From IMG/VR virus record IMGVR_UViG_3300026382_000008: a DNA stretch of 64,000 bases. One strand, 5' to 3'. The notes under the pieces were generated by a model that worked only from the letters and a program-made list of their open reading frames with translations, made no database searches and was not told where the DNA came from. The translations under genes were made by a program, and so were the position numbers. The DNA comes from an uncultured virus (IMG/VR IMGVR_UViG_3300026382_000008). Its lineage: Duplodnaviria > Heunggongvirae > Uroviricota > Caudoviricetes. Below are positions 15,751-53,448 of the stretch, piece by piece. Each line of letters opens with the position of its first letter. Position 1 is the stretch's first letter.

Positions 15751-15763
15751 AGAGGTTTGAAAT

Positions 15764-16360: not shown

Positions 16361-17256
16361 TCTTTTTGCATATAGGAGGAGTGCTTAGACATTTTCCCGA
16401 TTACATTCCTCTTCTTTTTAGTTTAAAGTCAAAATACAAATTTCTAAGATTTATAGGATACGATTCATTTAAGGATCTTCAACAATCAGGAGGACGAATA
16501 AATTATTTTGCTTCAGATTATGATATAGAGAAATTAGAATTATTACGAAAAACAAATTTATTTGATTCTTTTAACATTCAACTAGGAAACTTTTACTACA
16601 TAAAAGAAGAAATAGACCTGATTAAACAACGTTTAACAGATATATTATTGTTTTTTGATAAAGTTTATGTTACTCTTTCTAATGAATATTTGTTATCTAA
16701 ATTGAAACAATTCTTCGGTAACAATATTGTAGCTATATGTAGCATAACAAGAGTTCAACTTTCTTCAATTGAATGCGATAGAAAAGATTCTCTAATGTAT
16801 AAAAGATTGGAGAAAATATTTGATTTGATTGTTCCAAGATGTGAACATGTTTTCCAAGAAAATTTCATAAAGTCAGTAAACCTTAACAAGTATATCATAA
16901 TGATAAATGATACATGTAAGTACGCATGTCCCTATTGGAAATCACACTTTAAAGTTTATCATAAATTAAATGTATCTCACAAATGGAAATTGTTTAATAA
17001 ACAACAAATCTATAAGTTTCATGAATGCTGGTTAAAAGACTTTAATCCTTACGAAGAAAACCATCAGGAACGTTGTATATATGGTGATAAGTACGGAATG
17101 GACTTAACTGCAAAACAAATTAAGGAACTTATAGAACATGGAGTTAAACATTTCAAAATCTCAGGTCGAGAACTCACCAGTTCTAGATTTACTCAAGAAC
17201 TTAAAGACCAACTACAAAAGTTTGAAACAGCTTTTCAAACTACTAGAAGAAGTTAA
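16357..17256 (+). CDS. Peptidase U32-family-like protein (Fe-S hydroxylase family)
   Basis: INDTCKYACP..H, later C, GVKHFKISGRE. Confidence 0.75.
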   Translation: MIFLHIGGVLRHFPDYIPLLFSLKSKYKFLRFIGYDSFKDLQQSGGRINYFASDYDIEKLELLRKTNLFDSFNIQLGNFYYIKEEIDLIKQRLTDILLFFDKVYVTLSNEYLLSKLKQFFGNNIVAICSITRVQLSSIECDRKDSLMYKRLEKIFDLIVPRCEHVFQENFIKSVNLNKYIIMINDTCKYACPYWKSHFKVYHKLNVSHKWKLFNKQQIYKFHECWLKDFNPYEENHQERCIYGDKYGMDLTAKQIKELIEHGVKHFKISGRELTSSRFTQELKDQLQKFETAFQTTRRS

Positions 17257-17839
17257 TATAAGTTTGAGTAGTGTTAAACGTATAAACTTGAATGAATGTG
17301 GAGAGATTTGGACTATACTAACAGATTCAAGTATCGTTTACAATCTTGAATCGTTAACTTGTTTACCGAATCTCAGCATAACTGATCATATTATAGATTA
17401 TGTTTATGATTCGTATCTATTTCGTATATCGAAATCAATTTTTCTAAAACTTTACAAAAAATATGTATATCTCTTGATCAATGAATTACCTGGTAATAAA
17501 AAGTTTATATCATCAGACATACTTTGTAGGGAGTTGATTCCGTCTGAACATATCATTTTATCTAGAAATTTCATTTCATTCGTAATACATAGACAAAAGA
17601 AACTACGACTTGTTTTGCCTAATATAGAAAACTTTTTGTTGTATGATCAATCTTATTACTATATAGACATAGATTCGTTCATCATTCCTAAAGATACGTA
17701 TTTGCTTTCAACATGGATTGATGTCTACAATGGTATTGTAATCTACAATCGCAAAACAAACAAATTAAAACATTATCATAAATTGTTAACTTGTACTTAT
17801 AACAGACCTTTCAAATTCATAGAGGTTAACTCATGTTAA
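17138..17839 (+). CDS. Hypothetical protein (weak kinase-like N...D motif)
   Basis: ENFLLYDQSYYYIDID; start uncertain because of the long overlap. Confidence 0.55.
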   Translation: MELNISKSQVENSPVLDLLKNLKTNYKSLKQLFKLLEEVNISLSSVKRINLNECGEIWTILTDSSIVYNLESLTCLPNLSITDHIIDYVYDSYLFRISKSIFLKLYKKYVYLLINELPGNKKFISSDILCRELIPSEHIILSRNFISFVIHRQKKLRLVLPNIENFLLYDQSYYYIDIDSFIIPKDTYLLSTWIDVYNGIVIYNRKTNKLKHYHKLLTCTYNRPFKFIEVNSC

Positions 17840-18837
17840 TTGGTAAGATCAGACCCAAAAAGTCTTACGAAGTCTTAAATGACAACATTGATGAATCATA
17901 TAATTTTGAAGTTGTATCTCGTATCAATGATCTTTGTTCGTTACAATGTCCTTATTGTCATTGGTGCCATGGATATCATTATGATCTTAATGAGTGGTTT
18001 GAGACACATTTAAAGTTATTAGAAGTACTTCTACCTTTACACAAAAACATTCTTTTTTCATTTCATGGTGGTGAAGCAACAGAACATCCGGAATATAACT
18101 TATTTGAATCAATGATTTTTAAATTGAAAGATAAATTTGGTAGTCATCTAACAACGCTTCTAATGTCTCATGGTTTGTCACCATTATCAAAATATGAGGT
18201 ATTTGATAAACTCAATTTAACGTTACATTTTAATGAAAGTTTGCGCGTTAGAAAGCTTGATAATTTCTTTTTAACATTGGAAACATTCAGAAATAAAGTT
18301 GTGACTGTTGATATTATGTTAGAGAGTGTAGAAGAACCAAACTTAGATCTTTACAAAGATACAGTGTGCAATCTAATAGAATATTGTTTCAAATACGGAA
18401 TTAAAGTAACGTTACTTAAAGACTATTGTCATTACAAAGATCCATCAATAGCTTCAAATAAAGTAAATCAATTTATAGTTAACAAATATGGTGAATTAGG
18501 GTCTAAATTTAATATCGATAATCATGTATATAGCTACAATCAATTATTTCAGCTTGGCTTAAATTGTGAAGGTTATAAGTGTTACGCTCTAAGAGATATA
18601 TGTTATACAGCATGTAATAAACTTTTTGCATGTGGTGTCCACATGACTTCATATTTAAAATCTGTTGTCTATAACCAACATTGTAACTATTATCATGAAT
18701 CATTGCTTGATCTAAAAGAAGTTGATACATCTTTTCTAAAAAGTTTCTTTATGATTTACAAATATAAACTTTTTAAGTGTAAGTGGCCTTATTGTGGAGG
18801 CGATTTTGAAGTACAAAAAGTTATCTCAGATTTATAA
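17833..18837 (+). CDS. Radical SAM enzyme
   Basis: CSLQCPYC, FHGGEA, LTLH, C..C..CKWPYCGGD. Confidence 0.88.
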   Translation: MLIGKIRPKKSYEVLNDNIDESYNFEVVSRINDLCSLQCPYCHWCHGYHYDLNEWFETHLKLLEVLLPLHKNILFSFHGGEATEHPEYNLFESMIFKLKDKFGSHLTTLLMSHGLSPLSKYEVFDKLNLTLHFNESLRVRKLDNFFLTLETFRNKVVTVDIMLESVEEPNLDLYKDTVCNLIEYCFKYGIKVTLLKDYCHYKDPSIASNKVNQFIVNKYGELGSKFNIDNHVYSYNQLFQLGLNCEGYKCYALRDICYTACNKLFACGVHMTSYLKSVVYNQHCNYYHESLLDLKEVDTSFLKSFFMIYKYKLFKCKWPYCGGDFEVQKVISDL

Positions 18838-19642
18838 TAATCGTAAACAAACCACTAAACTATGGATGATACATAACAAGAAGGAATTTCATGAAAGATT
18901 GTTTCAAAAAGTTTTTGAAGACTTTTTTCCATCATATGAAAATATCAGCATTTTTCTTACGTATGATACCTGTATACCAAAAAAGTCTTACTTTTTAAAC
19001 GCTTATAGTATACATTTCATAAATGAAGATGTAATTCATATTCACTCTCTGAAAAATTACTTTGAATTCTATCCAGTATTTGAGATTGTAAAACCTCCTT
19101 TGAAACTTCTTGAATTAGGTCTAATAGAATGCGAAGAACCTATTTATTCATTCGATTATGTTAAAAACTTTATGACTCTTATGTCCTATATTGATAAGAT
19201 GAAAGAAACTAAATTACAGACTATATCATCATATGATGAATTTAAATCTATTTTATTACAAAATCATACATTAGCATCAGACTTTATTGATACATGGTTA
19301 TACTTTTTAACTCACTTTTATGCTTCTTATCAAATAGTAACAAACTACTTTATAATTCATAATGGAACTCTTCTTCCAGATTTGATTGCTAATGAATGTT
19401 TTCCTTCTTACATACCATCATCATACATAAATATGTATGCGCATTGTTTCTTGTATGCTGTAGAACATAAACTTATCAATCAAAGCCAATTATTTACAAT
19501 GATATCTAATATAAATCTTAAACTTGAAGAAGTGTTTTGCATCTTAGTTTCTCTGTTAATTTTTGATGATGGAGTTCTTGATGAAGAAGTTAAACAACAC
19601 ATTAAAAACAGAATTGAAGAAATTTATAACTTATTGTTATAA
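18794..19642 (+). CDS. Hypothetical protein
   Basis: Long ORF within the operon. Confidence 0.7.
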   Translation: MEAILKYKKLSQIYNNRKQTTKLWMIHNKKEFHERLFQKVFEDFFPSYENISIFLTYDTCIPKKSYFLNAYSIHFINEDVIHIHSLKNYFEFYPVFEIVKPPLKLLELGLIECEEPIYSFDYVKNFMTLMSYIDKMKETKLQTISSYDEFKSILLQNHTLASDFIDTWLYFLTHFYASYQIVTNYFIIHNGTLLPDLIANECFPSYIPSSYINMYAHCFLYAVEHKLINQSQLFTMISNINLKLEEVFCILVSLLIFDDGVLDEEVKQHIKNRIEEIYNLLL

Positions 19643-20234
19643 AAATCATGTATCACATTTTCCATCTTCTTTGAGTATGTTTTTCTTCATCTATCAAACA
19701 TTTTCTTCCATTTCAAACTTTCATGTCTTTAACGGAAAAGCTTTTAACGATTATGTATTAGATTACTTTAAATTAAAGAAGATTTGCAGTGATCCATCAT
19801 TATTCAATGCATATCCTATAGCATTAGGATATGCATTGGAAACATCTTTTAACACTCTTTGTTTTTTAAGTGATTCACAGATTACTCATGGAAGATTTTT
19901 TGAAACATTGTGCTTACTAAAGAAATTTGAGTTGACAAATCTTGTATGTGTTATTGACTTCAATAATCAAAGGTTAAGAAATCATCTTGATATAAATCTT
20001 GAAACATTTTTGGAAATTCTGAATTCTTTCAATTTGAGAATCAAGGTAATTGATGGATCATCTTTAGTCTATCAAAACTTTAGCTGTGATATTAATGAAT
20101 TCCACATTATAATTCTTCATACAAAAAAAGGATATCCTTTTAAATTCATTGAAGAAAACCCACAACTTTATCATTATAGGAGATTAGATGAGGAGTTTTA
20201 TATACAACTTAATCAAGAACTCAGAAAATTATAA
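19563..20234 (+). CDS. Transketolase-like N-terminal (TPP-binding) subunit, divergent
   Basis: SHFPSSLS, LSDSQ...GRFFE...IDFNNQ (degenerate GDG-x-NN), HTKKGYP...HY. Confidence 0.75.
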   Translation: MMMEFLMKKLNNTLKTELKKFITYCYKNHVSHFPSSLSMFFFIYQTFSSISNFHVFNGKAFNDYVLDYFKLKKICSDPSLFNAYPIALGYALETSFNTLCFLSDSQITHGRFFETLCLLKKFELTNLVCVIDFNNQRLRNHLDINLETFLEILNSFNLRIKVIDGSSLVYQNFSCDINEFHIIILHTKKGYPFKFIEENPQLYHYRRLDEEFYIQLNQELRKL

Positions 20235-20901
20235 GTTGTTTCATGCTGATATATTTCCTTATAAACATCCAAACATAATAGATGTAGGAAATTGTGAGTC
20301 AAGTTTATACCATGTGGCATATGGTTATGCTTTATCTCATCCTGATCAAATAGTTTTAGTTTTTGATGTATCGAGTTTTTCATTAGAGCAATCGATAAGC
20401 TTTTTTCGAGCATGTAAACCTGTAAAAAACTTTAAGATTTTGATTGGTGGTGCTGGTTTTGTTTACTATAAAACTTCTCATCAACATTATTGCTTGCATG
20501 ATATAAGTCTTGCTAAAAGTGTTTGTGGTACTGTGTTTTTTCCGATAAGTTTTCGTGAGTTAATACACTTTATAAACAGTAAAGAAGATACATGGACATT
20601 TATACGCCTGATGCCTGATAACTTGATTCATATGGATCTCCCAAAACTAAATCTAAGTATTCCTTTAGCATGTTATGGTTGGATTTTCAAGATCTTACAT
20701 CAATTTGTAAGTCCCATTAGGAGAATTTCTTATGTAAATTGTTTTTCTCGTTATAACAATTATCTTGTAATAGAAGATCATATATTTCACAATTTAACTA
20801 GTTATGATAAATGGTTTGGTGTACCATCTGTTTACTATGAAAGCTCAATGAAAATGTTTATTGAAAGAGGCATCGAGTGGCTCAAAAAATTCTCATTATA
20901 G
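20188..20901 (+). CDS. Transketolase-like C-terminal (pyrimidine-binding) subunit
   Basis: IDVGNCESSL..AYGYA, HYCLHDISL, FIRL, VIEDH. Confidence 0.75.
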   Translation: MRSFIYNLIKNSENYKLFHADIFPYKHPNIIDVGNCESSLYHVAYGYALSHPDQIVLVFDVSSFSLEQSISFFRACKPVKNFKILIGGAGFVYYKTSHQHYCLHDISLAKSVCGTVFFPISFRELIHFINSKEDTWTFIRLMPDNLIHMDLPKLNLSIPLACYGWIFKILHQFVSPIRRISYVNCFSRYNNYLVIEDHIFHNLTSYDKWFGVPSVYYESSMKMFIERGIEWLKKFSL

Positions 20902-21506
20902 GATGTGGTTATCTTGGGACAGCTATTTATGAGAGATTAAAATCATCATTTTTTGCTCTATGTACAAGTTTTAAATCTTTTGTTGACAATTTAAGAACAA
21001 TTCAATCACAAGATTTTATTCTTATTCATACTTCACATGTTAACAAAAATGAAGACATAAGTACGTATCAAACATATAAGAATTATCTTATAACAGAATA
21101 TCTTGTTAACTACAAATGGAAAAAGTACATTTTTCTCAGTAGTTTGGGTGTATATGAACTAGATAAAGTGAAAAGTACTTGCATATCAAATCAACATAAC
21201 TACAATTTATCTAAGTTTATTTCAGAATTTCGAATAAGAGAGACACAGCAATCATTTTTGATTTATCGATTAGACAGAATTTACGATGAATGTTTTAGAA
21301 GTAAAGGTTATATTAGTTATGCTATTAGAAACAATAAACCATTCAAACAATATGTATCTATTTGTTGGTTAAGAGACTTTTTAGATATCTTTGAGAAAAC
21401 TTTTCTAACAATGACAGGTGTTATTGATGTAAGAGGTAAATTCTATACATTCGAAGAGTTAAAACATGTCTTTGTTAACTATTGCTATACCAACAAAGAA
21501 TCGTAA
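20877..21506 (+). CDS. NAD-dependent epimerase/dehydratase (extended SDR)
   Basis: GCGYLG, FLSS.GVY, YNLSK. Confidence 0.85.
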   Translation: MAQKILIIGCGYLGTAIYERLKSSFFALCTSFKSFVDNLRTIQSQDFILIHTSHVNKNEDISTYQTYKNYLITEYLVNYKWKKYIFLSSLGVYELDKVKSTCISNQHNYNLSKFISEFRIRETQQSFLIYRLDRIYDECFRSKGYISYAIRNNKPFKQYVSICWLRDFLDIFEKTFLTMTGVIDVRGKFYTFEELKHVFVNYCYTNKES

Positions 21507-22155
21507 ACAGTATTTTTCTGAAACAATAAATAGTTTGAAAGCTTTCTATGACCAAAGAGAATTTGAAATTCTTATTCTTGATCAAACAGGTTACGCTGCT
21601 AATATATGTAGACATATTGATAATTGTAACATAATCACTTATAAAGAATACCTCTCGTTAAATGAAGTTTACAGAATTCTCATACAAGAAAGTAAAAGTG
21701 ATTTTATATGGTTTTTGGAAGATGATGATTATGTTTTAAACTGTAACATAAACGCATTCAATTATTTGATCTTGAAATACAAAGATCATATTCATTTTGT
21801 ACCACATAAAGAAGGTCAGTCTATCAAGTTTCTCTATCTTTTGAAGAATGAACGTATTACAAAAGAAAGGTTTATACATCTTTTGCAACAACATAATGAT
21901 TTATACTTTCTACAATTATCAAACTTTATTTTTCCTAAAGATGGACTTGTAATTGATTTCTTCAATGTTGTGGAAAGTATTTATAATGATTTTCTTCTGT
22001 TTCTTAAACATTCTTCAAAAACTGTTTGTTTCAATCCAAATTTGATATGGGTAAGGAGAATTCATGAACAACAAATATCATCAGAGTCAAAATATGAAAG
22101 ATTCGTTTACGATTCATTTCTCAGACATTACATGCATAATAGCTCATCCAGATGA
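21466..22155 (+). CDS. Glycosyltransferase family 2
   Basis: TIAIPTKNR, FLEDDD, RRIHEQQIS. Confidence 0.88.
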   Translation: MSLLTIAIPTKNRKQYFSETINSLKAFYDQREFEILILDQTGYAANICRHIDNCNIITYKEYLSLNEVYRILIQESKSDFIWFLEDDDYVLNCNINAFNYLILKYKDHIHFVPHKEGQSIKFLYLLKNERITKERFIHLLQQHNDLYFLQLSNFIFPKDGLVIDFFNVVESIYNDFLLFLKHSSKTVCFNPNLIWVRRIHEQQISSESKYERFVYDSFLRHYMHNSSSR

Positions 22156-22690
22156 TGAAGTCTTTTCATGTCTTGTTATGTTGCCATACATTACAAAAAT
22201 TGTTTGTCTTACATATGTTCCAAATCATAGAAGATTTGATACTTTACGCAATTTGTGTGATATATTAGGTATAAACTTATTGATTGATTATGATACAAAA
22301 CCTTTTCAAATACAACAATCAAAAACTGTTGAATTTCTTGATAAACACATAAAACTCTCAGAAAAATCTTTGTTGATAACTCATCATCCTAATGATTTAC
22401 ATCATGATCACAAACATGTTTATGAATGTGTTCAACAACATTTGAGATATAATACATATGCTTCATACATGTTTATGCCAGGTGTTTCTCATAATTGGCT
22501 GAAAACTGAGTTTAATACAGTTATTACATCAAATCACATAAGATTTGACTTGTTAGAAAAGTATAATTATATTCATAACTTCGAAATAATGAAGAATAAG
22601 TTAATAAGCATTCTTTCCTTTTATGGATCTCTTAAAGGAGCTCCTTATGGTTGGCCAGCATATACAAACTACACCCTTTTATGTACATGA
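22064..22690 (+). CDS. PIG-L/LmbE family deacetylase
   Basis: AHPDDE and HHDH motifs. Confidence 0.88.
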   Translation: MNNKYHQSQNMKDSFTIHFSDITCIIAHPDDEVFSCLVMLPYITKIVCLTYVPNHRRFDTLRNLCDILGINLLIDYDTKPFQIQQSKTVEFLDKHIKLSEKSLLITHHPNDLHHDHKHVYECVQQHLRYNTYASYMFMPGVSHNWLKTEFNTVITSNHIRFDLLEKYNYIHNFEIMKNKLISILSFYGSLKGAPYGWPAYTNYTLLCT

Positions 22691-23300
22691 TATAAACATA
22701 GGAAAACATTTATTGTACATGAATAAGTATTCAATACGATGCGATGACTCACTTTTTAGTCATTATTACTATTATGACTATTTCAAGAAATCAGTAATAC
22801 TTGCTGTCACAACATCGTATCTTCATGAATCTTCTAAGCTTAGAAAACGTTTTATTCAGACTCGTACTCCTTTGAATCACTTAACATGTTATGATTATAC
22901 TCGACAATTATTTGAAGGAAAAAAAGATGTTTTTATGACATATGAAGAATTAGTATGGTTAAGTCATCAACCAAACGTAATTATCATGTTTCATTCTCAT
23001 TGGCATTTAGCAGTTCCATCTGACAATTCACAGCGTCCGATAAGTCAGACACATTCTCTTTGGCAAGAATTCTATGATTGTCATTCTAAAATGGATTCTG
23101 TATATATTAATCCTCATTACAAAGACTTTATAGAATATGATTTTGAAGCAGGATTGATATTATTAAGATATCTTTTAAAGGATAGATTTTCATCTTATTT
23201 TGTTGCCCCTTATAACAGAGTTAATGATTTTCTTATATCAATTGCATCTAAATTTGGATTAAAAGTTTATCCTTGTAGAAATTTGGTGTGTATTGATTAG
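22623..23300 (+). CDS. Polysaccharide deacetylase (CE4/NodB-like)
   Basis: RCDD, MTYEEL, HSHWH, APYN. Confidence 0.7.
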   Translation: MDLLKELLMVGQHIQTTPFYVHDINIGKHLLYMNKYSIRCDDSLFSHYYYYDYFKKSVILAVTTSYLHESSKLRKRFIQTRTPLNHLTCYDYTRQLFEGKKDVFMTYEELVWLSHQPNVIIMFHSHWHLAVPSDNSQRPISQTHSLWQEFYDCHSKMDSVYINPHYKDFIEYDFEAGLILLRYLLKDRFSSYFVAPYNRVNDFLISIASKFGLKVYPCRNLVCID

Positions 23301-28217: not shown

Positions 28218-29423
28218 TTATTTGGTTTCTTGAAGTTGATGTACTTTACGAATAATTGGTTCAAGATTGTTAAACTTCCCAGCTACATAGAATGTAATAA
28301 AAGTTTTCATCTCATGATTATGTTTAGCATAAAGAGCTCTTAAGTGTTTTACATATGTGACATATTTTCGAATAGTATCATCTTTAAAAAGTATATAAAC
28401 ATAGTATTGTTTACTTGGATTAACATATTTAAGAGTTAGATCAAGATCCTTCTTATGTAAACCAACAAGCATGTAATATTCCGTATCGTTTATTTGTCTA
28501 AAATCGTGATTGTTTGGTCTTAAAACAGTCATATCGGATAATGAATATTTGAAAACCACACCAAATTTATGCATCATACCTGTTGTTAACCATTCAGTGA
28601 TATACATCTTATGTGGAATGTGTATCATCAGAGATCTTCTAAAATCATAAAGATTTGAAGTTTTAAGAGCATGAAACTCATCTGAATCATGAAGTAATGG
28701 TATATGAAATGGAATTTTGCTTTGACCATGAAAATAAGTTTCAACAAATTCAAACATGTTGCTAAATTGATTAAAGTCTACATATTTCTTGATAAACTTT
28801 GGAACAAAACGATTGAATACATCTTCAAAAGTTTGTTTACGGAGATGTTTATGGCAATTGAAATTGATAGTAACTCTATAAATCTTATTGGTTAGTTTAG
28901 ACTGCAGAATAAAAGTCTGGAAGAGTTTCTCAACATCAGGTGATCGAAGATTAAGTTTAATGGCTAAATACTTGCGCAAAGGCTCTATTTTGATTTTCTC
29001 TGATAATTTATAGAAGTGAGAAACAGGAACAATATCAATTTTAGCATTCTTAATGAATTCAGTTATATCATGCTTATGATAGAAAACTTTGTTTACTTTA
29101 CCATTGATAAAATCTCGAATTTGTATTGCTAGATTTGATATGTTTGGTGTGTAGTAAAGTTTATCGTCTATTGTTAGTAACATATACTTAGCTTTACCAG
29201 AAACTGCATTCTGTCTTAACCATATCTTAAACAAAGGATAGGGTGGTTTTTCGCTATAAACTTTATCAACAATTTTAAATTGATCAAGAATCTCTTTCGA
29301 TGAAATTTTCTTATTAAAACCGAAGTAGATATCATCAGAACTAGTTAACTTACGATATGCTGATCTAGAAAGAGCATATTTCTCATGAGTTTGCTTATGT
29401 TCTATTATGTAGTAGTATTCCAT
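28218..29423 (-). CDS. Hypothetical basic protein
   Basis: 401-aa ORF with SD GGAGG. Confidence 0.75.
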   Translation of the reverse strand: MEYYYIIEHKQTHEKYALSRSAYRKLTSSDDIYFGFNKKISSKEILDQFKIVDKVYSEKPPYPLFKIWLRQNAVSGKAKYMLLTIDDKLYYTPNISNLAIQIRDFINGKVNKVFYHKHDITEFIKNAKIDIVPVSHFYKLSEKIKIEPLRKYLAIKLNLRSPDVEKLFQTFILQSKLTNKIYRVTINFNCHKHLRKQTFEDVFNRFVPKFIKKYVDFNQFSNMFEFVETYFHGQSKIPFHIPLLHDSDEFHALKTSNLYDFRRSLMIHIPHKMYITEWLTTGMMHKFGVVFKYSLSDMTVLRPNNHDFRQINDTEYYMLVGLHKKDLDLTLKYVNPSKQYYVYILFKDDTIRKYVTYVKHLRALYAKHNHEMKTFITFYVAGKFNNLEPIIRKVHQLQETK

Positions 29424-29432: not shown

Positions 29433-30890
29433 CTAAAATACTTCATCTATAGAGATAGCTTTTTTGCTAATACAAAATGTTTCTTTTAGATTAAGTCTAT
29501 CTTTTACAATATTATTTGGATACATTGTATGAATTGATCGAGTCATTGCTACATATATAAGATTATACTCTTCTATCTCTTGTTGTGTTCCAGGTTTAAT
29601 ATTCCATTCCCAATCATCAGCCATTTTGACAGTACCAAACTCCAATCCTTTTGAAGTATGTGCTGTTAAGATACATAGACCTTTCTTTTTCCTATTCTTA
29701 CTTCTAAGCAACTTGTAAAGATCTGTTAAACGTTTATGATACATCTTGACTATATCAATTGAAGCGGATACCTCAATATCATTAGCATCAAGAGCATAAC
29801 GAGATAATTCACCTAATGAATAGAATTTTGATACAAACTTTCTAAGATTATCAGGTAACTTAATTGGTGGAGTATACATAAAGAATCTTTCAGCAATTGC
29901 CATAGGAAGAGCAAATATTTCTGATGGTGTACGATATGAATAAAAGTCAGAATTCGGATCCATTTTGGCAATCTTATCTACTATTTCAGCGTTGGTACGA
30001 GTTATGTAAGCATAAGTTTCAATTTTAGGATCCTTAGGTCCTTGACCTTTCAGAGGTGGATAAAGCTCTTCATCAAAATCAGGCTTAAGACAAAGCCATT
30101 GATATGCTAAATCTGCTACTTCTTGTGGAAATCGAAAACTCTCTGTTAGATATAACATTTTAGCATCATACTCGTTATAAAGCTTACTCATTACGTCCAT
30201 TGCATTTCTGAAACCATAGATCTTCTGATGAACATCCCCAACAGCTATTATAGGTTTACCAGAATTAAGCAGTATTTTGAAGACAACAGGATTTGTATCT
30301 TGTGCTTCATCTAACAAAACAAAATCATAACCTGATAATAATTCACTACAATCAGATTCTGAAGCTAATTTAAGATAGAAATCATGAGTTATTTCAATTT
30401 TTCTGTCTATCATATCTTGCCATAAACGTAAAGCTGCTTCTCTACCTATGTTTATGTAGTCTCTTTCTGATGGTACTTTGTAAGACATATGTTTAGCTAT
30501 AGTATGCATATCTCTGTTAACACTATTACAATATTCATGAAATATCTTTATAGCATAATAAGCTGATTTGTAATCTATATCATACAATTCACATATTGTA
30601 TAAGGACGTAAGTTATAACCAAGCCTAGGTGATCCAACATTTGTAACATACCATTTGTAACCAAGACCATGAGTTGTCAATACTTTTACATTAGAAGGGA
30701 ATCGTGCTTCAGCTTCTTCTTTTACAGATCTATTGTAAGCTAAATACAGAAATTTGTATTGTGGATAAGATTCAGCTACAGCTACAAGTGTTGTAGTTTT
30801 ACCAGTACCAGCATAAGCATTAATTACTAAATGTGAATCAAGATTCTTAACAGAGTCTACAATTTGTTTTTGTTCCTTTGTTAGTTGCAT
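29433..30890 (-). CDS. UvrD/Rep-like SF1 helicase
   Basis: AYAGTGKT, DEAQD, VGDVHQKIYGFR, SFRF, HTSKGLEF, YVAMTR. Confidence 0.93.
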   Translation of the reverse strand: MQLTKEQKQIVDSVKNLDSHLVINAYAGTGKTTTLVAVAESYPQYKFLYLAYNRSVKEEAEARFPSNVKVLTTHGLGYKWYVTNVGSPRLGYNLRPYTICELYDIDYKSAYYAIKIFHEYCNSVNRDMHTIAKHMSYKVPSERDYINIGREAALRLWQDMIDRKIEITHDFYLKLASESDCSELLSGYDFVLLDEAQDTNPVVFKILLNSGKPIIAVGDVHQKIYGFRNAMDVMSKLYNEYDAKMLYLTESFRFPQEVADLAYQWLCLKPDFDEELYPPLKGQGPKDPKIETYAYITRTNAEIVDKIAKMDPNSDFYSYRTPSEIFALPMAIAERFFMYTPPIKLPDNLRKFVSKFYSLGELSRYALDANDIEVSASIDIVKMYHKRLTDLYKLLRSKNRKKKGLCILTAHTSKGLEFGTVKMADDWEWNIKPGTQQEIEEYNLIYVAMTRSIHTMYPNNIVKDRLNLKETFCISKKAISIDEVF

Positions 30891-31190
30891 CTAGTCCTCC
30901 GTTGAAGACGAAAGTAATTTATTGATAGACCAATCTTTGTTTCCATTAATCGAATAAATTTCACCTTTGAATGCAATAAATGGTGGTGTTAAAGCAGAGG
31001 TTAGAAGAATAAGAGATGGTTTTAAATGTTTATCAATTTCATCAAGCATATCAATATTGACATTTTCATTTTTAACAACATTCATTATAACTTCTCTAAC
31101 AATTTCTGGATCTTTGTTAGAAATCAAAATAAGAAATGTTTTGGTGGTTAATAATGTTTGAGATTTGAGCTCAATGATATACAACTTCAT
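30891..31190 (-). CDS. Hypothetical protein
   Basis: SD GGAGG. Confidence 0.65.
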   Translation of the reverse strand: MKLYIIELKSQTLLTTKTFLILISNKDPEIVREVIMNVVKNENVNIDMLDEIDKHLKPSLILLTSALTPPFIAFKGEIYSINGNKDWSINKLLSSSTED

Positions 31191-31228
31191 CTTGACCCTC
31201 CTTAAAGAAAAGAGTTAGAGGTGAAGAC

Positions 31229-33559
31229 CTAATGATCTTCACCTCTATCACCAAACATGTTTGCAACTATGTGATGTATTGGGCAATCTGTATCAATTTT
31301 TTCTTTTAAAGCTTTATACTTAACGTTTACAAGGGTTCTTACTTTCTCATCAAAATTATCTGGTAAGTTTATGATTTCATCACCTAATCTGACTTGTTTA
31401 AGATCTTCAAATTCTCGTACAACTTTTGGTATTTCATCTGCTAATAATTCATAGATATCTATGAATGATGAATCAGTATCAGAATAGAATACATAATATT
31501 GCTCACCTTCAGCTTGTCTAACAACTTCTCTATTAAGACTTATATCAAACTGATTAACATCTGAAATTGAACCATCAATCAAAGCTTTGATTAGATTTTC
31601 TGTTATACCAGAAACAAATTTAATTTCATACTGTCCTGTTAATGTGATAGTTATTGAGATTCTTGTATCAAAGAATCTGTATGCTTGATTACCCATAGCA
31701 CCATAAATAGCATTAGCTAATACTTTAAGAGCTTTCTGTATAATGTTGTACTTAGCACCTAAAGCTTTTTCTTCTGGATCTGAACTTGCTAAAAGCTTTA
31801 AAGCTTTCTTTTTAAATGCTTTTCTTCTTTTGATAAGATCTTCAAGAATGTTAACGATAAACCCTTTCTTTTCTCTGGAGAAAATAGCTCCTGAAAAACC
31901 AATTGTAAGTTTTGAGTTATAGATATGATCTTTAAGATCTTTGACCTTAATTTTTACTCGTCTTACATCAATAAAATTCTGATTTTTTGGATCAAGTATG
32001 AGTGTTACTTCTTTGTCGTCCAATTCATTAGTGAGTAAAATCTTTTCCATAAGATATGTATCACCTAATGCTTCTTCAATAAATCCTATAAATGTTTCTG
32101 GTGAGATATTGAGAGAAATCATAATACTTGGATACATAGAAGAAGCATCCAAATCAATAGCCCATTGAATAAGACCTTTTCGAGGTTCTCTTACAAACGC
32201 TCCTACAAAAGCATTTGATTTTTCTGCATTTCTTGGTCGTTGTCTCAGTAAAAGATTTTCTTTTGAAGCATATTGGAACATCAAACCATCAATCTGTGAC
32301 AGAGTGCTAAAGCTATTAAGAAAAGAGATCCAAGATAAATCTTTTAGCATTAGGTGTAGTGCTAAGTTACCTCTTTTATCTTCTAGCTTCTTAATAAGAT
32401 ATGTATCAACAATTGAATAAGCTATGAATTTATTTGGTTCACGTTTAACTAAATCAACAAGAGTACCACTATACTTAACTTTTGATACACCTAAAACTTT
32501 ACCAGCTATATGATCAAGAGAATATGATGTTTCACGACCTTCATAAGACTTATACAACTCTAATAAGTCAACAACAATTATACCCGGAATAAAATGGTAA
32601 CCAAGTTTACCAGATGGATACATAGGTTTATTTACAGGCGAAAATTGTTGAGTATCGTAACCAATAACCTTACATCTATTTGCTATATAATTGATATCGA
32701 AGTAAATATTCCAAGCAGTGAGTACATCTATTTGATTTTCTCTTAAAAGTTTAGCAAATACATCTAATAAATCTTTTTCGGATTTAACTTTGATAAGTTT
32801 ATAGTTGTTAAAAGTTATCCCATTTTCTTGTATGTGTTGGTTGATTGCTGATTGATCAATGAATTTCTCATCAATTATTTCGCAGTTGATAATCTGATAA
32901 AGTGTATCATTGACCATGAAAGACATAGCACTTATTGGATACTTAGCTTCTTTTTCATTTGGGAATAGTCCATCCTCAGCAAAAACTTCAATGTCAAAAA
33001 AGGCTATTCTATAAGATGGTTCGTCAGGAATAATCGATTTAATCTGGAAAACTAACCAATCATCAATTGATAAGTCATAATTGTAATAAACTTTATCTTT
33101 GTCAAATGGTAAAGCTTTATATCGATCAACTACTATTGATTTACAAGTTGGGCCAATCTGCTTATAACATGCAGTTTCTGGTAAAAGTGGTTCTGGTATT
33201 TGTTTGTCAGGTTTTACATAATAGAAATGAAAATTTACGTTATCAAGTAAAACATATTTATGTTGATTTCCATTACTGAATATAGCAAAGATTCCTTGAT
33301 CTACAACATCATCTCCAACAAATGTCTTATAACGTTGTACATCTATCAACTTAAAGTTTTGTTTCTTTAAAGTTTCCAATATAGATTGCAATGAATGAGT
33401 ATCAGCAACAATGAAATTTGATGCATTTTCTTTTAACTGTATTGATGAATCTAGAAATTGTTGTATACTTTCAAATGCTTGTTTGAAAATTGGTTCGTTT
33501 TTTGCACGACTTCTTAAAACAGCTGATGGATGAAGGTTAGGAATTACAGTTACTTTCAT
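31229..33559 (-). CDS. Family B DNA polymerase, main subunit (UDG C-terminal fragment + 3'-5' exonuclease + palm/fingers)
   Basis: HPSAVLR at the N-terminus; FDIE, WNIYFD, YSIVD exonuclease motifs; DASSMYPS, KVLANAIYG, YSDTDS; no KKxY or thumb; ATG 33559 follows SD GAGGT. Confidence 0.9.
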   Translation of the reverse strand: MKVTVIPNLHPSAVLRSRAKNEPIFKQAFESIQQFLDSSIQLKENASNFIVADTHSLQSILETLKKQNFKLIDVQRYKTFVGDDVVDQGIFAIFSNGNQHKYVLLDNVNFHFYYVKPDKQIPEPLLPETACYKQIGPTCKSIVVDRYKALPFDKDKVYYNYDLSIDDWLVFQIKSIIPDEPSYRIAFFDIEVFAEDGLFPNEKEAKYPISAMSFMVNDTLYQIINCEIIDEKFIDQSAINQHIQENGITFNNYKLIKVKSEKDLLDVFAKLLRENQIDVLTAWNIYFDINYIANRCKVIGYDTQQFSPVNKPMYPSGKLGYHFIPGIIVVDLLELYKSYEGRETSYSLDHIAGKVLGVSKVKYSGTLVDLVKREPNKFIAYSIVDTYLIKKLEDKRGNLALHLMLKDLSWISFLNSFSTLSQIDGLMFQYASKENLLLRQRPRNAEKSNAFVGAFVREPRKGLIQWAIDLDASSMYPSIMISLNISPETFIGFIEEALGDTYLMEKILLTNELDDKEVTLILDPKNQNFIDVRRVKIKVKDLKDHIYNSKLTIGFSGAIFSREKKGFIVNILEDLIKRRKAFKKKALKLLASSDPEEKALGAKYNIIQKALKVLANAIYGAMGNQAYRFFDTRISITITLTGQYEIKFVSGITENLIKALIDGSISDVNQFDISLNREVVRQAEGEQYYVFYSDTDSSFIDIYELLADEIPKVVREFEDLKQVRLGDEIINLPDNFDEKVRTLVNVKYKALKEKIDTDCPIHHIVANMFGDRGEDH

Positions 33560-33567
33560 TCTTGACC

Positions 33568-33903
33568 TCACGATTTTAGAATTTCTCCAAATGTTTTATT
33601 AAGTTTGACTTCTATGCATCGAATTAAATAACATGAATTAATGAATAAATAGTATATGTCATCATCGTCATATGATTCGTAATCTACAATATCGATGATT
33701 GAAGTAACTTTATCTATTATCTCTAAATCAATATCTTGATCAATGGAAAACTCCACATTATAAGCTAGGTCTATGAGAACTTTCTCATCTTTGAGGGAGT
33801 TGATTCGCACTAGTATGTTTAATATCTTTTTAGCTAAATCTTCAGACTGATTATATATAAGCTGTGTTGCATAACAGAATAAGTCTTTAACTAGCTGTTT
33901 CAC
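33568..33903 (-). CDS. Hypothetical protein lying between the UDG halves
   Basis: Coupled ORF. Confidence 0.65.
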   Translation of the reverse strand: MKQLVKDLFCYATQLIYNQSEDLAKKILNILVRINSLKDEKVLIDLAYNVEFSIDQDIDLEIIDKVTSIIDIVDYESYDDDDIYYLFINSCYLIRCIEVKLNKTFGEILKS

Positions 33904-34504
33904 AACAACCTCGTATAAGCTTCTTAATTAAACAACTTGTTGTACCATGTGGATATAGATCGTAGTAATACTGCATAATTTCTTTCTCATCTGATAAATG
34001 TTTCACATCATATAAATGTAATGTATCAATTCTGTTATCTTTCCAGATACGTTTATAAGAATCTGGATCGAAGTGAGATCTAAACAGTCTAAAACATTCA
34101 ATAGGTTTTATCAGTGATGCAAAATCATCAAGAGACATAAAACTTAAGATTACCTTTTTTATACTCAACCATTGAAACTGTATTGGTTGAAAATCTTGTA
34201 GCAACCTAAGTAATTCATCTTTTCTGTTGATTGACTCTATATCAATGTTAATGTTATCAACAATAACTACATCCTTCAAAAGATCTGATAAATTGTTATT
34301 TTCATAACTATAATGTAGCAAACACATACTTTTAACAAGACTGTATAAATGTAATTCAAATTCGTAAAAATTGAAATTAAATTCCGAATAAAGCAAATTT
34401 ATTACCGATTTTTGATATGTTTCAAGCAAATTTTGAGTCTGATGTAAAGTGTTAGTAATTATATATCTCACAATATAAGAAAGACTAACCATCATCCACC
34501 TCAA
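33887..34504 (-). CDS. Hypothetical protein lying between the UDG halves
   Basis: Coupled ORF; likely start at MMVSL after GAGGTG. Confidence 0.65.
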   Translation of the reverse strand: MRWMMVSLSYIVRYIITNTLHQTQNLLETYQKSVINLLYSEFNFNFYEFELHLYSLVKSMCLLHYSYENNNLSDLLKDVVIVDNINIDIESINRKDELLRLLQDFQPIQFQWLSIKKVILSFMSLDDFASLIKPIECFRLFRSHFDPDSYKRIWKDNRIDTLHLYDVKHLSDEKEIMQYYYDLYPHGTTSCLIKKLIRGCCETAS

Positions 34505-35480
34505 TTACAAATCTTTGTCCAGCAACTTTTGTAATTGCTACTGGTTTTTCAAGTATATTCTGAGTTGCTAATGCTCCAAGAGGAACAACAACTTTAGGCT
34601 TAACTTTACTTATTTGTTGTTTAAGAAGAGGTTTACAACATTCTAAAGTCTGTTTGTCAGGATCACCATTATCTGGAATGTAGCACATAGCAGAATTTGT
34701 GATAACTATATTCTTATCAGGAAACATTTCAGCTAAATATTTTCTGAGTAGTCGTCCACTTTGACCAACAAATGGCCTACCTTGTTCCTTTTCTTCTTTA
34801 TATGGATTCATACCAATTATGAGAATATCTACTTCATCTCTTGAATCATCACCAATTATAAAGTCTGGTGGGACAAAAGGTTGGTTCCTCAGAGGACAAT
34901 TCTTACAATTCTCATAAAGACAAGTTGTATTTTTAGTTGATAACAGATCAATAATCCATTGTTTATAATCTTGCAATCTTTTATGGAGATTACTAACATT
35001 TTGAGCTGTTTGTTTTGCTGCAATTGTAAAGAAATCTAATTCCTCTTTAGATTTGGCTTTCTTTGCTTGACCACATAACTGCTTAAGAGTTTCTTCTCCA
35101 AGCATTTCTTTAACAAAAGGTATATCTTGTGGCTTGATACCAAAATGCTCCCATAAAGGTTTAGCTAATGGATCTTGATGTGGTTTCTTTTGTGCAAGAG
35201 TCCAAAAATCATACTTTGATACTTTGTAATGCTTAACTAATTGTTTCAATCGAATCAAAAGATCTTTTTTAGATATGTGATATATGTTAAAACCACTTAA
35301 GAGTTGTGCTATATGACTATTAAGTTGTGGGTTAAGGAGAAATGTTGTAATTAGAGTCTTATGAGTAATTTGTTTAGACACTATTAATTCATCAGGCGGT
35401 ATCATTGAATCATCTTCAAACAACCAATAATAGTAAAGTTCCATGATATTTTTTGCTTTAGCTTTTATACTTTCATGCAT
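34485..35480 (-). CDS. Unknown N-domain fused to a family-4 uracil-DNA glycosylase lacking its last motif
   Basis: CKNCPL, IIGMNP..EE..GRPFVGQSG.LL, TNSAMC, CKPLLKQQI...PKVVVPLGALA; ends at GQRFVIEVDDG before the HP motif. Confidence 0.85.
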   Translation of the reverse strand: MHESIKAKAKNIMELYYYWLFEDDSMIPPDELIVSKQITHKTLITTFLLNPQLNSHIAQLLSGFNIYHISKKDLLIRLKQLVKHYKVSKYDFWTLAQKKPHQDPLAKPLWEHFGIKPQDIPFVKEMLGEETLKQLCGQAKKAKSKEELDFFTIAAKQTAQNVSNLHKRLQDYKQWIIDLLSTKNTTCLYENCKNCPLRNQPFVPPDFIIGDDSRDEVDILIIGMNPYKEEKEQGRPFVGQSGRLLRKYLAEMFPDKNIVITNSAMCYIPDNGDPDKQTLECCKPLLKQQISKVKPKVVVPLGALATQNILEKPVAITKVAGQRFVIEVDDG

Positions 35481-36022
35481 GTTTCACCTCTCAGTTTTTG
35501 TACATTTCGTTTAAGCTTAATAGGCATGAAATCCATCCAAATAGAAAGAGTTTCAGTATCAAGTTTATTAATGATTTTTCTAAGAATAACAACAATAGGT
35601 TCAGGTCTAACAGGTTTTGTAATCGGTGTCCAAATCTGATCTTTTTTCTTCTGATTGCATTCTTCACATGCAGTTACAAGATTTGTCCAACTCCATAAAC
35701 CACCACGTGATTTAGGGATAACGTGATCAATAGTTGCAGTCTTTTCATTCACTTCTCTTCCACAATATTGACATGTCCAATTATCTCTAATGAAAATAAG
35801 AGTACGTGACGGATTTACATAAATCATTTTCTGGTCTATAACTTCATTAACTTGAATAACGATAGGTATTTGAAATATTTGATGTGGACTATGTAAAAAT
35901 TTTGATGGATGATAAGCTAAAACTTTTGAAGTTTCCCTTAATGATAAAACAAATGCTTTCTTGAAGTTCAAGATCATACAGGGATAATACCGTTTGTCAA
36001 GAATAAGACAATAAGGTATCAT
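35465..36022 (-). CDS. HNH endonuclease
   Basis: RDNWTCQYCG, TIDHVIPKSRGG, NLVTACEECNQKK. Confidence 0.92.
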   Translation of the reverse strand: MIPYCLILDKRYYPCMILNFKKAFVLSLRETSKVLAYHPSKFLHSPHQIFQIPIVIQVNEVIDQKMIYVNPSRTLIFIRDNWTCQYCGREVNEKTATIDHVIPKSRGGLWSWTNLVTACEECNQKKKDQIWTPITKPVRPEPIVVILRKIINKLDTETLSIWMDFMPIKLKRNVQKLRGETCMKV

Positions 36023-36025
36023 TCC

Positions 36026-36274
36026 TCACCTCTGTTTCTTGATGTAGTCAATGGTTAGGAGTGGTAAGAAAACAATAATCGAAAATGATGCTATCAGAAT
36101 AACCTGAATGCTAAAAAAGATTGATGATGTTGATAGTTCGTTAACAAGAGCATATGTCACAATGCTAATGATTAAGATTAGTAAAAGTAGAGATTGAACA
36201 GGATATAAGACTATGCATAAAGCTAACAACAAATCCCATAAGATTGTCAATAAAAGATCCATCTCTTTCTCCAA
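36026..36274 (-). CDS. Small membrane protein
   Basis: Highly hydrophobic, about 3 TM segments. Confidence 0.6.
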   Translation of the reverse strand: MEKEMDLLLTILWDLLLALCIVLYPVQSLLLLILIISIVTYALVNELSTSSIFFSIQVILIASFSIIVFLPLLTIDYIKKQR

Positions 36275-36310
36275 ATTAGGTTTGTATAATATAAATGATG
36301 AAAACTTTAA

Positions 36311-36340
36311 AGGGAAGGTGGATTAGGTTCCACCTTCCCT
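36311..36340 (-). terminator. Rho-independent terminator after the tail gene block
   Basis: 12-bp stem AGGGAAGGTGGA/TCCACCTTCCCT followed by a T-rich tract on the - strand. Confidence 0.75.
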
Positions 36341-36347
36341 CTATCAA

Positions 36348-38117
36348 CTAGTACATGATATTAAGTCTTAGTGTTTCATCATTACCTGATTTGTTAGTTA
36401 TAACAATCTTTTGCGGTCCTTGTTCATAGACATCGAATTTTGCTCCATCAATAGAAACCCAATGCCATTCACCTTGCAACAATCCTTCTACTGATACTTC
36501 ATCTAAGACAGGTGGTTTTTTAGGATCAAAGTTAATCTTGTCATAACTAATTTGAGAACTCGATGTTTCGATTATGAATAACACATAAACATTATTTCCA
36601 AACGTTTCATATAAGACTTTTGATGATAACGAATCCACGACAGTTATCTCTGATACATGTTGCTCTAATGTTTCTCCTGTTGTTAGAGATAATTGTTTAA
36701 AAGAGTTTGATGTTGAATCATAAACATAAAATGTTTTAAAATCTTTCGTAAAAACTGTTTTCTTATTTGGAAACTTGTAAGTCAAGTAATCAGCATTTAT
36801 AATCGGTAATTTTGTAATAGTTTCAACATAAGTAGATGATGTATAATAAGGGTCTAAAATTATTTGGTTTGTTGATGATGAAATATTACAATATTCTGTT
36901 ATCATATCTGATTCACATTTAACACCACCAAATAGAGACATAATTTCATCATCACTCAAAGCACGATTGAAAAAGTAGAAAATTAGACCACCCGAATAAG
37001 GCTGTTCAATTGTTTTATTAGAATAAGTACCTGCTTGAAACTTACCAACACCATCTTGAGTCTTTACGAGTTTACCATTAGCGAAATAAGATAACTTATT
37101 GGTTGATGAGTCACTTCTTATACATACTACAACGGGAAATGAATCTTTAGGAAATGAGTATCCAAAACCTCCTGTTGATTGTTCATAAAAATATATAGAA
37201 ACATAACCTGATTGAGTTCCATCCTTTGCCATTTTAAATGTGCCTTTATACTGACTATTTGTATTTGTAAAGATATGTCGATATTCAAGATAAGGAGTAC
37301 CAATTATGGCAAATATTGTCCAATCGTATAAAGTCGATGACAGAGTATAATTCCACGTAGCATGATTTGTTTCTACAATATAACCCTTACAACCAAGATC
37401 TTTATCACCTGTATCATATGGATATGCACCTGAAACACCAGACATATTTGTTAAAACTTTAGAACCATCAGTTGTAAGATAAGCTAAAACATCACCTGTA
37501 TTAAGAGGATCTGATGTACAAAGATTAGCACCCAAATGAATACTATCGGATCTATTACTTATACAGTCTGTATAAATCAATTTGTAAACTTTTGTTTCAT
37601 TTGCATTAAATGAATCTTGAATAATAAGTTTATCACTTACATTCCATGTAACATCTGAACCATCTTCTTTATACAGAGAGTAATTCTGTGGATCTACTTT
37701 GATCGGAATACACACATATCCTGATTTACTTTCAGTCGAATTATTTGTAACTTTTATAGTCATTTGATAAAGCTTATTATCTAAATACACAGTATCCAAA
37801 GGAACAGATTTGAGATAAATTGCAATATCTAAAGAGTTGGCATCAGATGCTAACATATTCCATTCATTCTGAGTAAGTTTTTGTATCTGATTAAGTGATA
37901 GACCAGAAGTAGCAATATCATCTAAAGAAACATCAATCCAGGAGGAAGTTGTAAAATCATAAGTTTTCCAAGTTGTACGTCCGTCAACGCTAAAAAGAAA
38001 CTTACTTAAATCTAGATCTAAACCTTTAATTGAAATATTAGTTAATGTTTTCAAACCACTTAAGTTTAAAGAGTTCGCTGAAATAAGCAATACTGAATCA
38101 TATAGAGAAATTTTCAT
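36348..38117 (-). CDS. Virion structural protein with ConA/LamG-like domain
   Basis: FSVDGRTTW, beta-rich, YFANGKLV...FFNRALSDDEI. Confidence 0.7.
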   Translation of the reverse strand: MKISLYDSVLLISANSLNLSGLKTLTNISIKGLDLDLSKFLFSVDGRTTWKTYDFTTSSWIDVSLDDIATSGLSLNQIQKLTQNEWNMLASDANSLDIAIYLKSVPLDTVYLDNKLYQMTIKVTNNSTESKSGYVCIPIKVDPQNYSLYKEDGSDVTWNVSDKLIIQDSFNANETKVYKLIYTDCISNRSDSIHLGANLCTSDPLNTGDVLAYLTTDGSKVLTNMSGVSGAYPYDTGDKDLGCKGYIVETNHATWNYTLSSTLYDWTIFAIIGTPYLEYRHIFTNTNSQYKGTFKMAKDGTQSGYVSIYFYEQSTGGFGYSFPKDSFPVVVCIRSDSSTNKLSYFANGKLVKTQDGVGKFQAGTYSNKTIEQPYSGGLIFYFFNRALSDDEIMSLFGGVKCESDMITEYCNISSSTNQIILDPYYTSSTYVETITKLPIINADYLTYKFPNKKTVFTKDFKTFYVYDSTSNSFKQLSLTTGETLEQHVSEITVVDSLSSKVLYETFGNNVYVLFIIETSSSQISYDKINFDPKKPPVLDEVSVEGLLQGEWHWVSIDGAKFDVYEQGPQKIVITNKSGNDETLRLNIMY

Positions 38118-51605: not shown

Positions 51606-51628
51606 ACCGACTCCCGAAAACAAATAGT

Positions 51629-53430: not shown

Positions 53431-53448
53431 CCTCTTTATTGAGATTTA

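Follow-up and report, generated by a model that had tools for sequence, protein, structure and literature searches.

A uracil-DNA glycosylase (UDG) encoded by an uncultured Caudoviricetes virus is cut in two, and its remainder heads the family B DNA polymerase (PolB) of the same virus. Both pieces lie in a 64,000-nt stretch of IMG/VR record IMGVR_UViG_3300026382_000008, hereafter the window, which is AT-rich phage DNA (28-33% G+C). The first piece, UDG-N, consists of a helical N-domain (residues ~1-175) followed by a UDG domain that runs from the predicted Fe-S cysteines through the next-to-last strand and stops in the last beta-hairpin. The second piece, UDG-C, is the leader of the polymerase, whose ATG (33559) lies 925 nt past the UDG-N stop codon, with two further open reading frames (ORFs) between. 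A preliminary description of this DNA, made from its letters alone, had reported a glycosylase divided in this way, and the ORFs, Pfam matches and a purpose-built profile bear it out.

We consider it fairly probable that an ancestral UDG-PolB fusion was fractured by gene insertion and rescued by fragment complementation. The ancestral single gene would have encoded the helical N-domain, a family-4-type Fe-S UDG and a T4-like family B polymerase. This gene would have been cut, in the common ancestor of the clade, at the turn of the last UDG beta-hairpin by insertion of a small gene, most likely of the 202-aa family discussed below. Each piece would have acquired or retained a Shine-Dalgarno site and start codon of its own, with a single operon expressing both. 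UDG-N would contribute motif A (GMNPY), four putative cluster cysteines and most of the fold, and the polymerase would open with the missing strand, motif B (HPSAVLR, which supplies the catalytic histidine and an arginine that contacts DNA) and the closing helix. Non-covalent reassembly would then rebuild a working glycosylase and tie it, along with the N-domain, to the polymerase, as in fused relatives.

One glycosylase domain on two polypeptides

The UDG-N chain ends in ..AITKVAGQRFVIEVDDG before a TAG stop codon; its last residues are QRFVIEVDDG, and a stretch of this terminus reads ..ITKVAGQRFVIEVDDG. The N terminus of the polymerase piece, PolB-N, reads MKVTVIPNLHPSAVLR. Pfam recognized UDG (PF03167) in UDG-N residues 215-315 with 71.9 bits against a cut-off of 24.3, covering only profile positions 6-102 of 141. 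We built a hidden Markov model (HMM) of 197 positions from 62 intact UDG domains (51 stand-alone proteins and 11 cut from fusions, split forms excluded) and scanned all 720 stop-to-stop frames of at least 30 aa in the window with it. Two frames matched: UDG-N at model positions 16-149 (E 2.5e-49) and the PolB frame at 146-191 (E 7e-5). These matches are complementary and tile the UDG domain end to end, in keeping with the earlier remark that the halves, once joined, read as an apparently complete domain. That both pieces match one domain is more than chance. Motif B is absent from the UDG-N chain and sits on the PolB polypeptide.

The best solved relatives of UDG-N are the family-4 UDGs 1ui0, 4zbx and 1vk2. 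Residues 12-142 of 205 in the closest by sequence, the Thermus thermophilus enzyme 1ui0, align with UDG-N 191-323 (E 4.8e-19); its last ~60 residues have no partner in UDG-N and find their counterpart on PolB. The 45-residue PolB leader alone gave no UDG match against PDB sequences, being too short a query. In the window, UDG and polymerase do not share an ORF, and one or two ORFs separate them here and likewise in three related loci. The hexamer TGAGGT is present at both junctions, as had been noted before, each copy a few bases before an ATG, and a deletion between the copies would join the halves out of frame. We also looked for a second UDG in a 147-kb relative record (estimated 54% complete), which holds the split UDG only, with one UDG match.

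An exhaustive HMMER search with UDG-N returned a split-type orthologue (P0006, 334 aa, 57% identity) and three long proteins with matches to UDG-N over its whole length: P0008 (1047 aa, 37%), P0011 (971 aa) and P0025 (1006 aa). Each unites the helical N-domain, a complete UDG and PolB in a single polypeptide, which is the uninterrupted fusion that the preliminary description had suggested looking for among relatives. P0008 is the nearest fused relative, with 37% identity over residues 10-322, and is colinear with both window pieces. The distance from ITK to HPS is 24 residues in P0008 and 25 in the two window pieces combined, so nothing was lost or gained and the cut falls in the hairpin turn. 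A scan of viral contigs for the gene neighbourhood of P0008 found no locus. Pfam assigned the 19 long matches to UDG plus PolB (11), UDG plus PolA (6), a PolIII-alpha finger plus UDG (1) and UDG only (1), so that UDG-PolB fusions comprise at least 11 metagenomic proteins. The UDG match in these 11 extends to profile position 126-139 of 141, compared with 102 in the window. Because 11 of the 19 long matches have UDG and PolB in one chain with a near-complete UDG match, the best reading is that the fusion is the older state and the split the younger. A further viral contig (L086) encodes an 858-aa fused UDG-PolB that has GMNPY and is without the long N-domain.

The split forms group together. 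A maximum-likelihood tree of 16 PolB parts, rooted at midpoint only and with several fused rows on long branches, placed the five split forms in one group (100/100) with fused P0008 as sister (90/93). All five PolB clusters of this clade, 58-63% identical overall, start one to six residues before VIPNLHPSAV; 11 of their first 16 residues are invariant, and only three columns are so in residues 17-59. The four UDG-N orthologues (56-62% identical) are all full length, stop within a few residues of the same strand and retain GMNPY, PFVG.SG, TN and the cysteines. The same cut is thus present in five PolB clusters and four sequenced loci, and the genes within it differ. The window reads HNH endonuclease, UDG-N, ORF202, ORF111, PolB, so that its cut holds 202 aa and 111 aa. 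Locus L001 reads HNH, UDG-N, a 59-aa ORF, ORF201, PolB (59 aa and 201 aa in the cut); L002, the 147-kb relative, reads HNH, five other genes including ORF212, UDG-N, ORF115, PolB (115 aa); and L092, with no HNH gene, reads UDG-N, ORF194, PolB (194 aa). Judged by these comparisons, the cut is old, conserved and under selection, and its cargo changes between lineages. This corrects the preliminary description in one respect, in that the cut is common to the whole clade and not private to the window genome.

The split is not an assembly artefact. DNA-run contigs from three other studies cover both junctions in the same arrangement, with gapless contigs spanning 33640-35600 and 33854-35275 and another crossing the PolB start (33300-33779); no contig of those three studies joins across the cut without the insert. 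Loose ends at 33560, found in two runs, bear the upstream sequence of an L002-type relative, and homology between relatives therefore stops exactly at the PolB start codon. Strain variants pointed to unequal constraint within the locus. Among the variants listed (40 of 80, to which all counts refer), synonymous and non-synonymous changes numbered 11 and 6 in UDG-N, 10 and 3 in ORF202, and 2 and 6 in ORF111, which also showed single-base indels at 33570 and 33826 (one insertion, one deletion) in single contigs of one run. On these counts and indels, UDG-N and ORF202 look constrained and ORF111 much less so. ORF111 may be dispensable or fast-evolving.

Proposed reassembly, catalysis and competing explanations

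We modelled UDG-N residues 165-331 (36-row alignment) together with PolB residues 1-45 (16-row alignment), as the preliminary description had proposed. The complex reached ipSAE values of 0.72, 0.78 and 0.79 (median 0.78), and the best of three controls reached 0.00. At least 99% of contacts were common to the runs, with a partner pLDDT of at least 77. The mark was attained by 116 of 157 solved complexes and two of 215 mismatched pairs, counts that are rough, with our own alignments supplied. PolB strand residues 4-8 were modelled between UDG-N 297-301 and 322-326, the position of the last strand in an intact UDG. The two proteins probably dock to rebuild the UDG. Fragment complementation, as first put forward in the preliminary description, thus gains support from the complex model and from motif invariance in the five PolB clusters, neither of which amounts to a demonstration.

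Phage polymerase genes often carry introns and inteins, and the pieces could instead be rejoined after transcription or translation by a group I or II intron, trans-splicing, a split intein, recoding or bypass. Relative P0022 carries an intein in its PolB, and in the window an HNH gene adjoins UDG-N; phage metagenomes are also known to contain fractured genes in which split inteins occur along with a free-standing endonuclease (PMC2677866). The sequence nevertheless makes rejoining extremely improbable. Rfam at E<=1 over 30000-37000 detected no intron, and the predicted folding of the 925-nt insert does not exceed that of its shuffles (z -0.17). The insert is fully coding, each of its ORFs having a ribosome site, and what it encodes changes from lineage to lineage. 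A group I or II intron was rejected on these grounds, and no support emerged for the RNA-level joining that the preliminary description had named as its alternative. A split-intein fractured gene was likewise rejected: no intein halves flank the break, the tails past the UDG fold (0-6 residues) leave no room for them, and the Pfam scan at E<=0.01 contained no intein family. Recoding was dropped since the four lineages end UDG-N with TAG, TGA, TAG and TAA, and a ribosome passing the window's TAG would meet a TAA 12 codons on; the frame offset between the halves also varies between genomes.

The motifs bear on whether the rebuilt domain would be an active enzyme. UDG-N matches both the UDG superfamily model (PF03167, above the cut-off) and family-4 enzymes, and its motif A departs from GE(A/G)PG, reading GMNPY in translation; the earlier report of GMNP in place of GEAP was accurate. 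GMNPY is invariant in the four split orthologues and is also found in fused P0008 and the L086 858-aa protein; the distant fusions P0011 and P0025 have AEAPG. Since the fused P0008 and L086 proteins have it, GMNPY is, on this comparison, a lineage trait and not decay. H10 and P11 of PolB are invariant in 16 split and fused PolBs, and within the clade R16, N225 and all four cysteines never vary. In an alignment of 36 sequences these cysteines, predicted 4Fe-4S ligands, fall in conserved columns: those of C192 and C195 are invariant or nearly so, and those of C266 and C282 are conserved to at least 90%. UDG-N shares the CxxC pair, PFVG.SG and TN...C with 1ui0, which is a single chain with a GEAPG-type motif A.

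A comparison of UDG families (PMC10359453) gives motif A as GQDPY in family 1, GINPG in Mug, GMNPG in SMUG and GE(A/G)PG in family 4. It gives motif B as HPSPLS in family 1, HPSPRN in SMUG, HPAAVL in family 4 and HPS(S/A)(L/V)(L/V)R in UdgX, and describes a motif B arginine (R184) that touches DNA and is conserved in family 4 too (PMC10359453). The window motif B matches the UdgX/family-4 pattern exactly, and its motif A is a composite of GMNP, as in SMUG, and the tyrosine of family 1. An asparagine positions water in SMUG and Mug, and by analogy the motif A asparagine could take that role here. Given the motif B fit, the likeness of motif A to SMUG and the four cysteines in cluster columns, we favour an active glycosylase over a module with a structural role only.

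Several points weigh against the account of a fractured fusion rescued as a working enzyme. Motif A is unlike the family-4 form, and the competence of GMNPY is argued by analogy with SMUG GMNPG and Mug GINPG (PMC10359453). UDG is inactive and thought to be structural in some phage UDG-PolA fusions (PMC10201439), and the same could hold here. The pass of the complex model may stem from model memory of solved intact family-4 UDGs such as 1ui0; intact members having been solved, the model therefore shows that the halves fit the fold and not that they bind in the cell. Finally, the insert that made the cut is a parsimony guess from four lineages, in one of which the resemblance is weak (L092 ORF194, E 1e-4 to 3e-4, 8 sequences).

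The inactive N4-like UDG-PolA domains make a structural alternative real. The halves would dock, and the rebuilt domain would be a structural or DNA-binding module of the replicase, serving processivity or tethering the N-domain, with the motif kept as a docking strand. The absent family-4 glutamate of motif A speaks for such a module, as do the processivity role proposed for the N4-like domains (PMC10201439) and the poxvirus UDG that acts as processivity cofactor of a PolB (PMC4889955). We hold it to be unlikely, however: the residues kept across the split and fused PolBs (H10, P11) and within the clade (R16, N225, the cysteines) are catalytic rather than packing residues, GMNP equals the motif of active SMUG, and the inactive N4-like domains are described as being without the histidine hairpin (PMC10201439), which the window UDG retains. 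A harsher reading is that the cut killed the glycosylase and left UDG-N and the PolB leader as non-interacting, decaying relics. The interrupted domain, the non-canonical motif A and the relaxed constraint and strain-specific indels of ORF111 would all fit. This reading is disfavoured, and we think it very doubtful, in that the cut is common to lineages 56-63% identical with both pieces still open, four of four UDG-N genes are full length with variants that are mostly synonymous, and the motif is invariant while the next 40 PolB residues vary freely.

Genes in and around the cut

If a fractured fusion is the right account, the original insertion was most likely the ORF202 family, a parsimony inference from four lineages that draws on the junction shared by the window and L092, where the ORF202-family start overlaps the UDG-N end in the same way. 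In the window, the Shine-Dalgarno site of ORF202 (GAGGTG) lies inside the last codons (E-V) of UDG-N. ORF202 and L001 ORF201 are 33% identical (E 3e-19) and form one family with L002 ORF212 (E 2e-10 to 3e-14); L092 ORF194 resembles this family weakly (E 1e-4 to 3e-4 against a set of 8 sequences). A gene of this family stands beside UDG-N in all four lineages. ORF111, an acidic protein of isoelectric point 4.3, is 42% identical to L002 ORF115 at the same place (E 2e-25). Neither ORF202 nor ORF111 had a Pfam or PHROG match, word-indexed protein searches with the inserted ORFs returned only their own clusters, and a protein atlas held no usable match for ORF111 and scores of at most 0.89 for ORF205, the TTG-initiated form of ORF202. 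An AlphaFold2 (AF2) model of ORF205 from three sequences (pLDDT 46.6) was too poor for a fold search.

The HNH gene (Table 1) is present in three of the four lineages (the window and, by tblastn, L001 and L002/L091). It is not in L092, where UDG-N begins 89 nt after the upstream gene. In L001 it occupies 3681-4244 and in L002 1431-1991, with 62% identity. It looks like a free-standing mobile endonuclease adjoining a locus of shifting gene content.

We infer that the block from UDG-N to PolB-N is one operon with a single transcript. Two long terminator-like hairpins flank the block from an 82-aa ORF to PolB-N, with none inside it and none between UDG-N and PolB-N, although the count of terminator-like sites in the region was not above shuffles. 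A GGAGG-like site precedes the start of every cistron by 5-8 nt. A scan for sigma-70-type promoters was uninformative (25 sites against 31.9 expected from shuffles).

Table 1 Features of the split glycosylase-polymerase locus, in window coordinates.
Feature	Position	Strand	Basis or remark
Terminator-like hairpin upstream of block	36308-36343	minus	15-pair stem then T run
HNH endonuclease	35465-36022	minus	Pfam HNH_5, E 4.9e-19; overlaps UDG-N start
UDG-N, 331 aa	34485-35480	minus	ORF; Pfam UDG
Predicted N-terminal all-helical domain, UDG-N residues 1-175	34956-35480	minus	AF2 model
Motif A GMNPY, UDG-N residues 223-227	34800-34814	minus	translation
Inserted ORF202, 202 aa from ATG (205 aa from TTG, ORF205)	33887-34495	minus	
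Inserted ORF111, 111 aa	33568-33903	minus	
PolB-N, 776 aa	31229-33559	minus	ATG at 33559
UDG-C piece (first ~40 PolB residues: last beta-strand, motif B, closing helix)	33440-33559	minus	own HMM
Motif B HPSAVLR, PolB residues 10-16	33512-33532	minus	translation
Terminator-like hairpin directly after PolB-N stop	31216-31247	minus	14-pair stem then T run
99-aa ORF	30891-31190	minus	
Superfamily 1 (SF1) helicase	29433-30890	minus	
401-aa ORF	28218-29423	minus	
PolB-C, 313 aa	27234-28175	minus	

The polymerase is itself divided a second time. PolB-N contains the UDG-C piece, a linker, the 3'-5' exonuclease and the palm and fingers up to motif C (YSDTDS), followed by a ~75-aa tail; Pfam matched DNA_pol_B_exo1 and DNA_pol_B, the latter over profile positions 14-252 of 453. 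The rest of the palm and the thumb are on PolB-C, separated from PolB-N by the 99-aa ORF, the SF1 helicase and the 401-aa ORF. The two pieces matched successive parts of phrog_262 (856 positions), PolB-N at 107-629 (E 7e-97) and PolB-C at 612-851 (E 2.4e-14), and PolB-C aligns with residues 947-1184 of the unsplit fused protein P0056, directly after DTDS. PolB-C orthologues occur in the L002 (63% identity) and L086 records, and P0008, P0011 and P0025 also end near the region where PolB-N ends; the thumb cut is therefore older than the UDG cut. The intein of P0022 sits at about the same PolB place (profile ~264 of 453, against a window match ending at 252). What is one or two genes in relatives is three genes here, with five others in between.

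The helical N-domain is conserved in the split forms and in fused P0008, P0011 and P0025. Its AF2 model, from seven sequences, is all helices (pLDDT 73.1, pTM 0.55). Pfam returned nothing for it at E<=1, and Foldseek nothing against the PDB at E<=0.001. The top row of a wide search with the VIA tool was 3u5z_A, chain A of the T4 clamp-loader complex, which we take to be the small subunit gp62 (Z 5.7, root-mean-square deviation 2.8 A over 75 residues). Of the 50 rows listed, 14 were clamp-loader or AAA+ C-terminal helical domains, every one of them covering model residues ~10-97. With this tool, Z values under 8-13 are common for helical bundles, and the best Z here lies below that range. The resemblance to a clamp-loader small subunit raised in the preliminary description thus has weak structural backing, and we treat it as a lead only.

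Turning to the wider setting, near-identical DNA is present in runs labelled hydrothermal vent metagenome, no RNA run being among those listed for 33300-35600, and window proteins recur on a contig of 175,752 bases. Searches of GenBank phages by tblastn with PolB and UDG-N found no close relative, all matches being below 60% identity; T4-like Vibrio phages showed ~27% identity to PolB. Window genes include an endolysin, tail-fibre proteins, class I and class III ribonucleotide reductases, a dCMP deaminase, a RusA-like resolvase and many radical-SAM proteins. At least eight radical-SAM-like ORFs have PHROG radical-SAM matches, unusually many for a phage. Such genes lie at 4824-8093 and 12137-15750 (plus strand) and at 50246-50890 and 57676-58212 (minus strand), several of them within a run of ~20 tightly packed, mostly unannotated ORFs of 200-330 aa at 8430-23300 (plus). 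The dCMP deaminase, the class I reductase (NrdA/NrdB) and the class III reductase (NrdD/NrdG-like) are clustered at 50916-51623, 51659-55974 and 55971-58212 (minus). A dUMP-producing metabolism in this phage fits a replicase with built-in uracil surveillance. In L002, a nicotinamide-nucleotide adenylyltransferase-like gene (4020-4484, plus) lies just upstream of UDG-N, and HD/kinase-like and RNA-ligase-like genes follow PolB (9226-12201, plus), all named from their translations. These genes around the L002 replication block are not at the corresponding place in the window.

Comparison with other split and fused enzymes

A close precedent is the ribonucleotide reductase NrdA-a/NrdA-b of Aeromonas phage Aeh1 (PMC3045599). 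There, too, an essential phage DNA-metabolism gene is split into two cistrons by inserted DNA with both pieces retained, and non-covalent assembly restores function without RNA or protein splicing, shown experimentally; we propose the same mechanism here. Retention is likewise seen in our clade, in which the four UDG-N orthologues and five PolB clusters keep invariant motifs. The cases differ in what was inserted and in how the pieces would meet. The Aeh1 insert is the homing endonuclease gene mobE (PMC3045599), whereas the ORFs inserted here are without a detectable nuclease domain by Pfam and PHROG, the ORF205 model is poor, and the HNH gene lies 5' of UDG-N, outside the break. Tails made by the insertion are essential for Aeh1 assembly (PMC3045599); none exist here, where the cut falls in a hairpin turn of a small domain. 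Unlike that of Aeh1, this cut parts two catalytic motifs and leaves one of them on another enzyme, the polymerase. The fractured genes of environmental metagenomes (PMC2677866) are also phage replication or repair genes broken in two with genes between, and they have split inteins; since none flank the break here, protein splicing cannot ligate the pieces.

Glycosylases joined to replicases are known in other forms. The phage UDG-PolA fusions of SPO1 and N4-like phages carry a family-4-type UDG at the N terminus of a replicative polymerase, active in some lineages and inactivated in others (PMC10201439). Those are family A enzymes in one polypeptide; here the polymerase is of family B, the UDG domain is spread over two chains and an extra ~170-aa helical domain stands in front. 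In the poxvirus holoenzyme, PolB with A20/A22 and the UDG D4/E4 (PMC4889955, PMC11912389), a UDG is held non-covalently on a family B replicase, as we propose here. That UDG is whole, of an unrelated family and bridged by a third protein (PMC4889955), whereas the link here would be the UDG fold itself, split over two chains. The literature that we searched, which left most subscription journals outside its coverage, held no description of a UDG-PolB fusion in phages, and within that coverage replicases fusing the N-domain, UDG and PolB appear not to have been described previously.

A bolder and distinctly unlikely extension of the complementation account is that the cut is used and not merely tolerated. 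With motif B on the polymerase, the glycosylase would be active only while UDG-N is docked on PolB. UDG-N, through its clamp-loader-like N-domain, would be an exchangeable subunit of the replisome whose loading can be regulated, and the small genes within the cut, that of the acidic 111-aa protein among them, would encode co-translated proteins that modulate either this docking or the uracil repair of the host. If true, a repair protein and a replicase would share one active site in a natural enzyme of two chains.

For annotation, the arrangement means that gene callers will label UDG-N a truncated UDG and overlook the polymerase leader. That leader, a strand plus a motif, is a candidate natural split-enzyme tag. 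Should the two chains reassemble as proposed, they would represent natural protein-fragment complementation of a ~190-residue catalytic domain, with one active-site motif per chain, kept across lineages ~60% identical. The clade would then illustrate how a phage can neutralise the insertion of a gene, selfish or accessory, when it has no intron, intein or newly made interaction tail to do so. The fused relatives represent a wider family of replicases, with uracil surveillance built into a family B polymerase.

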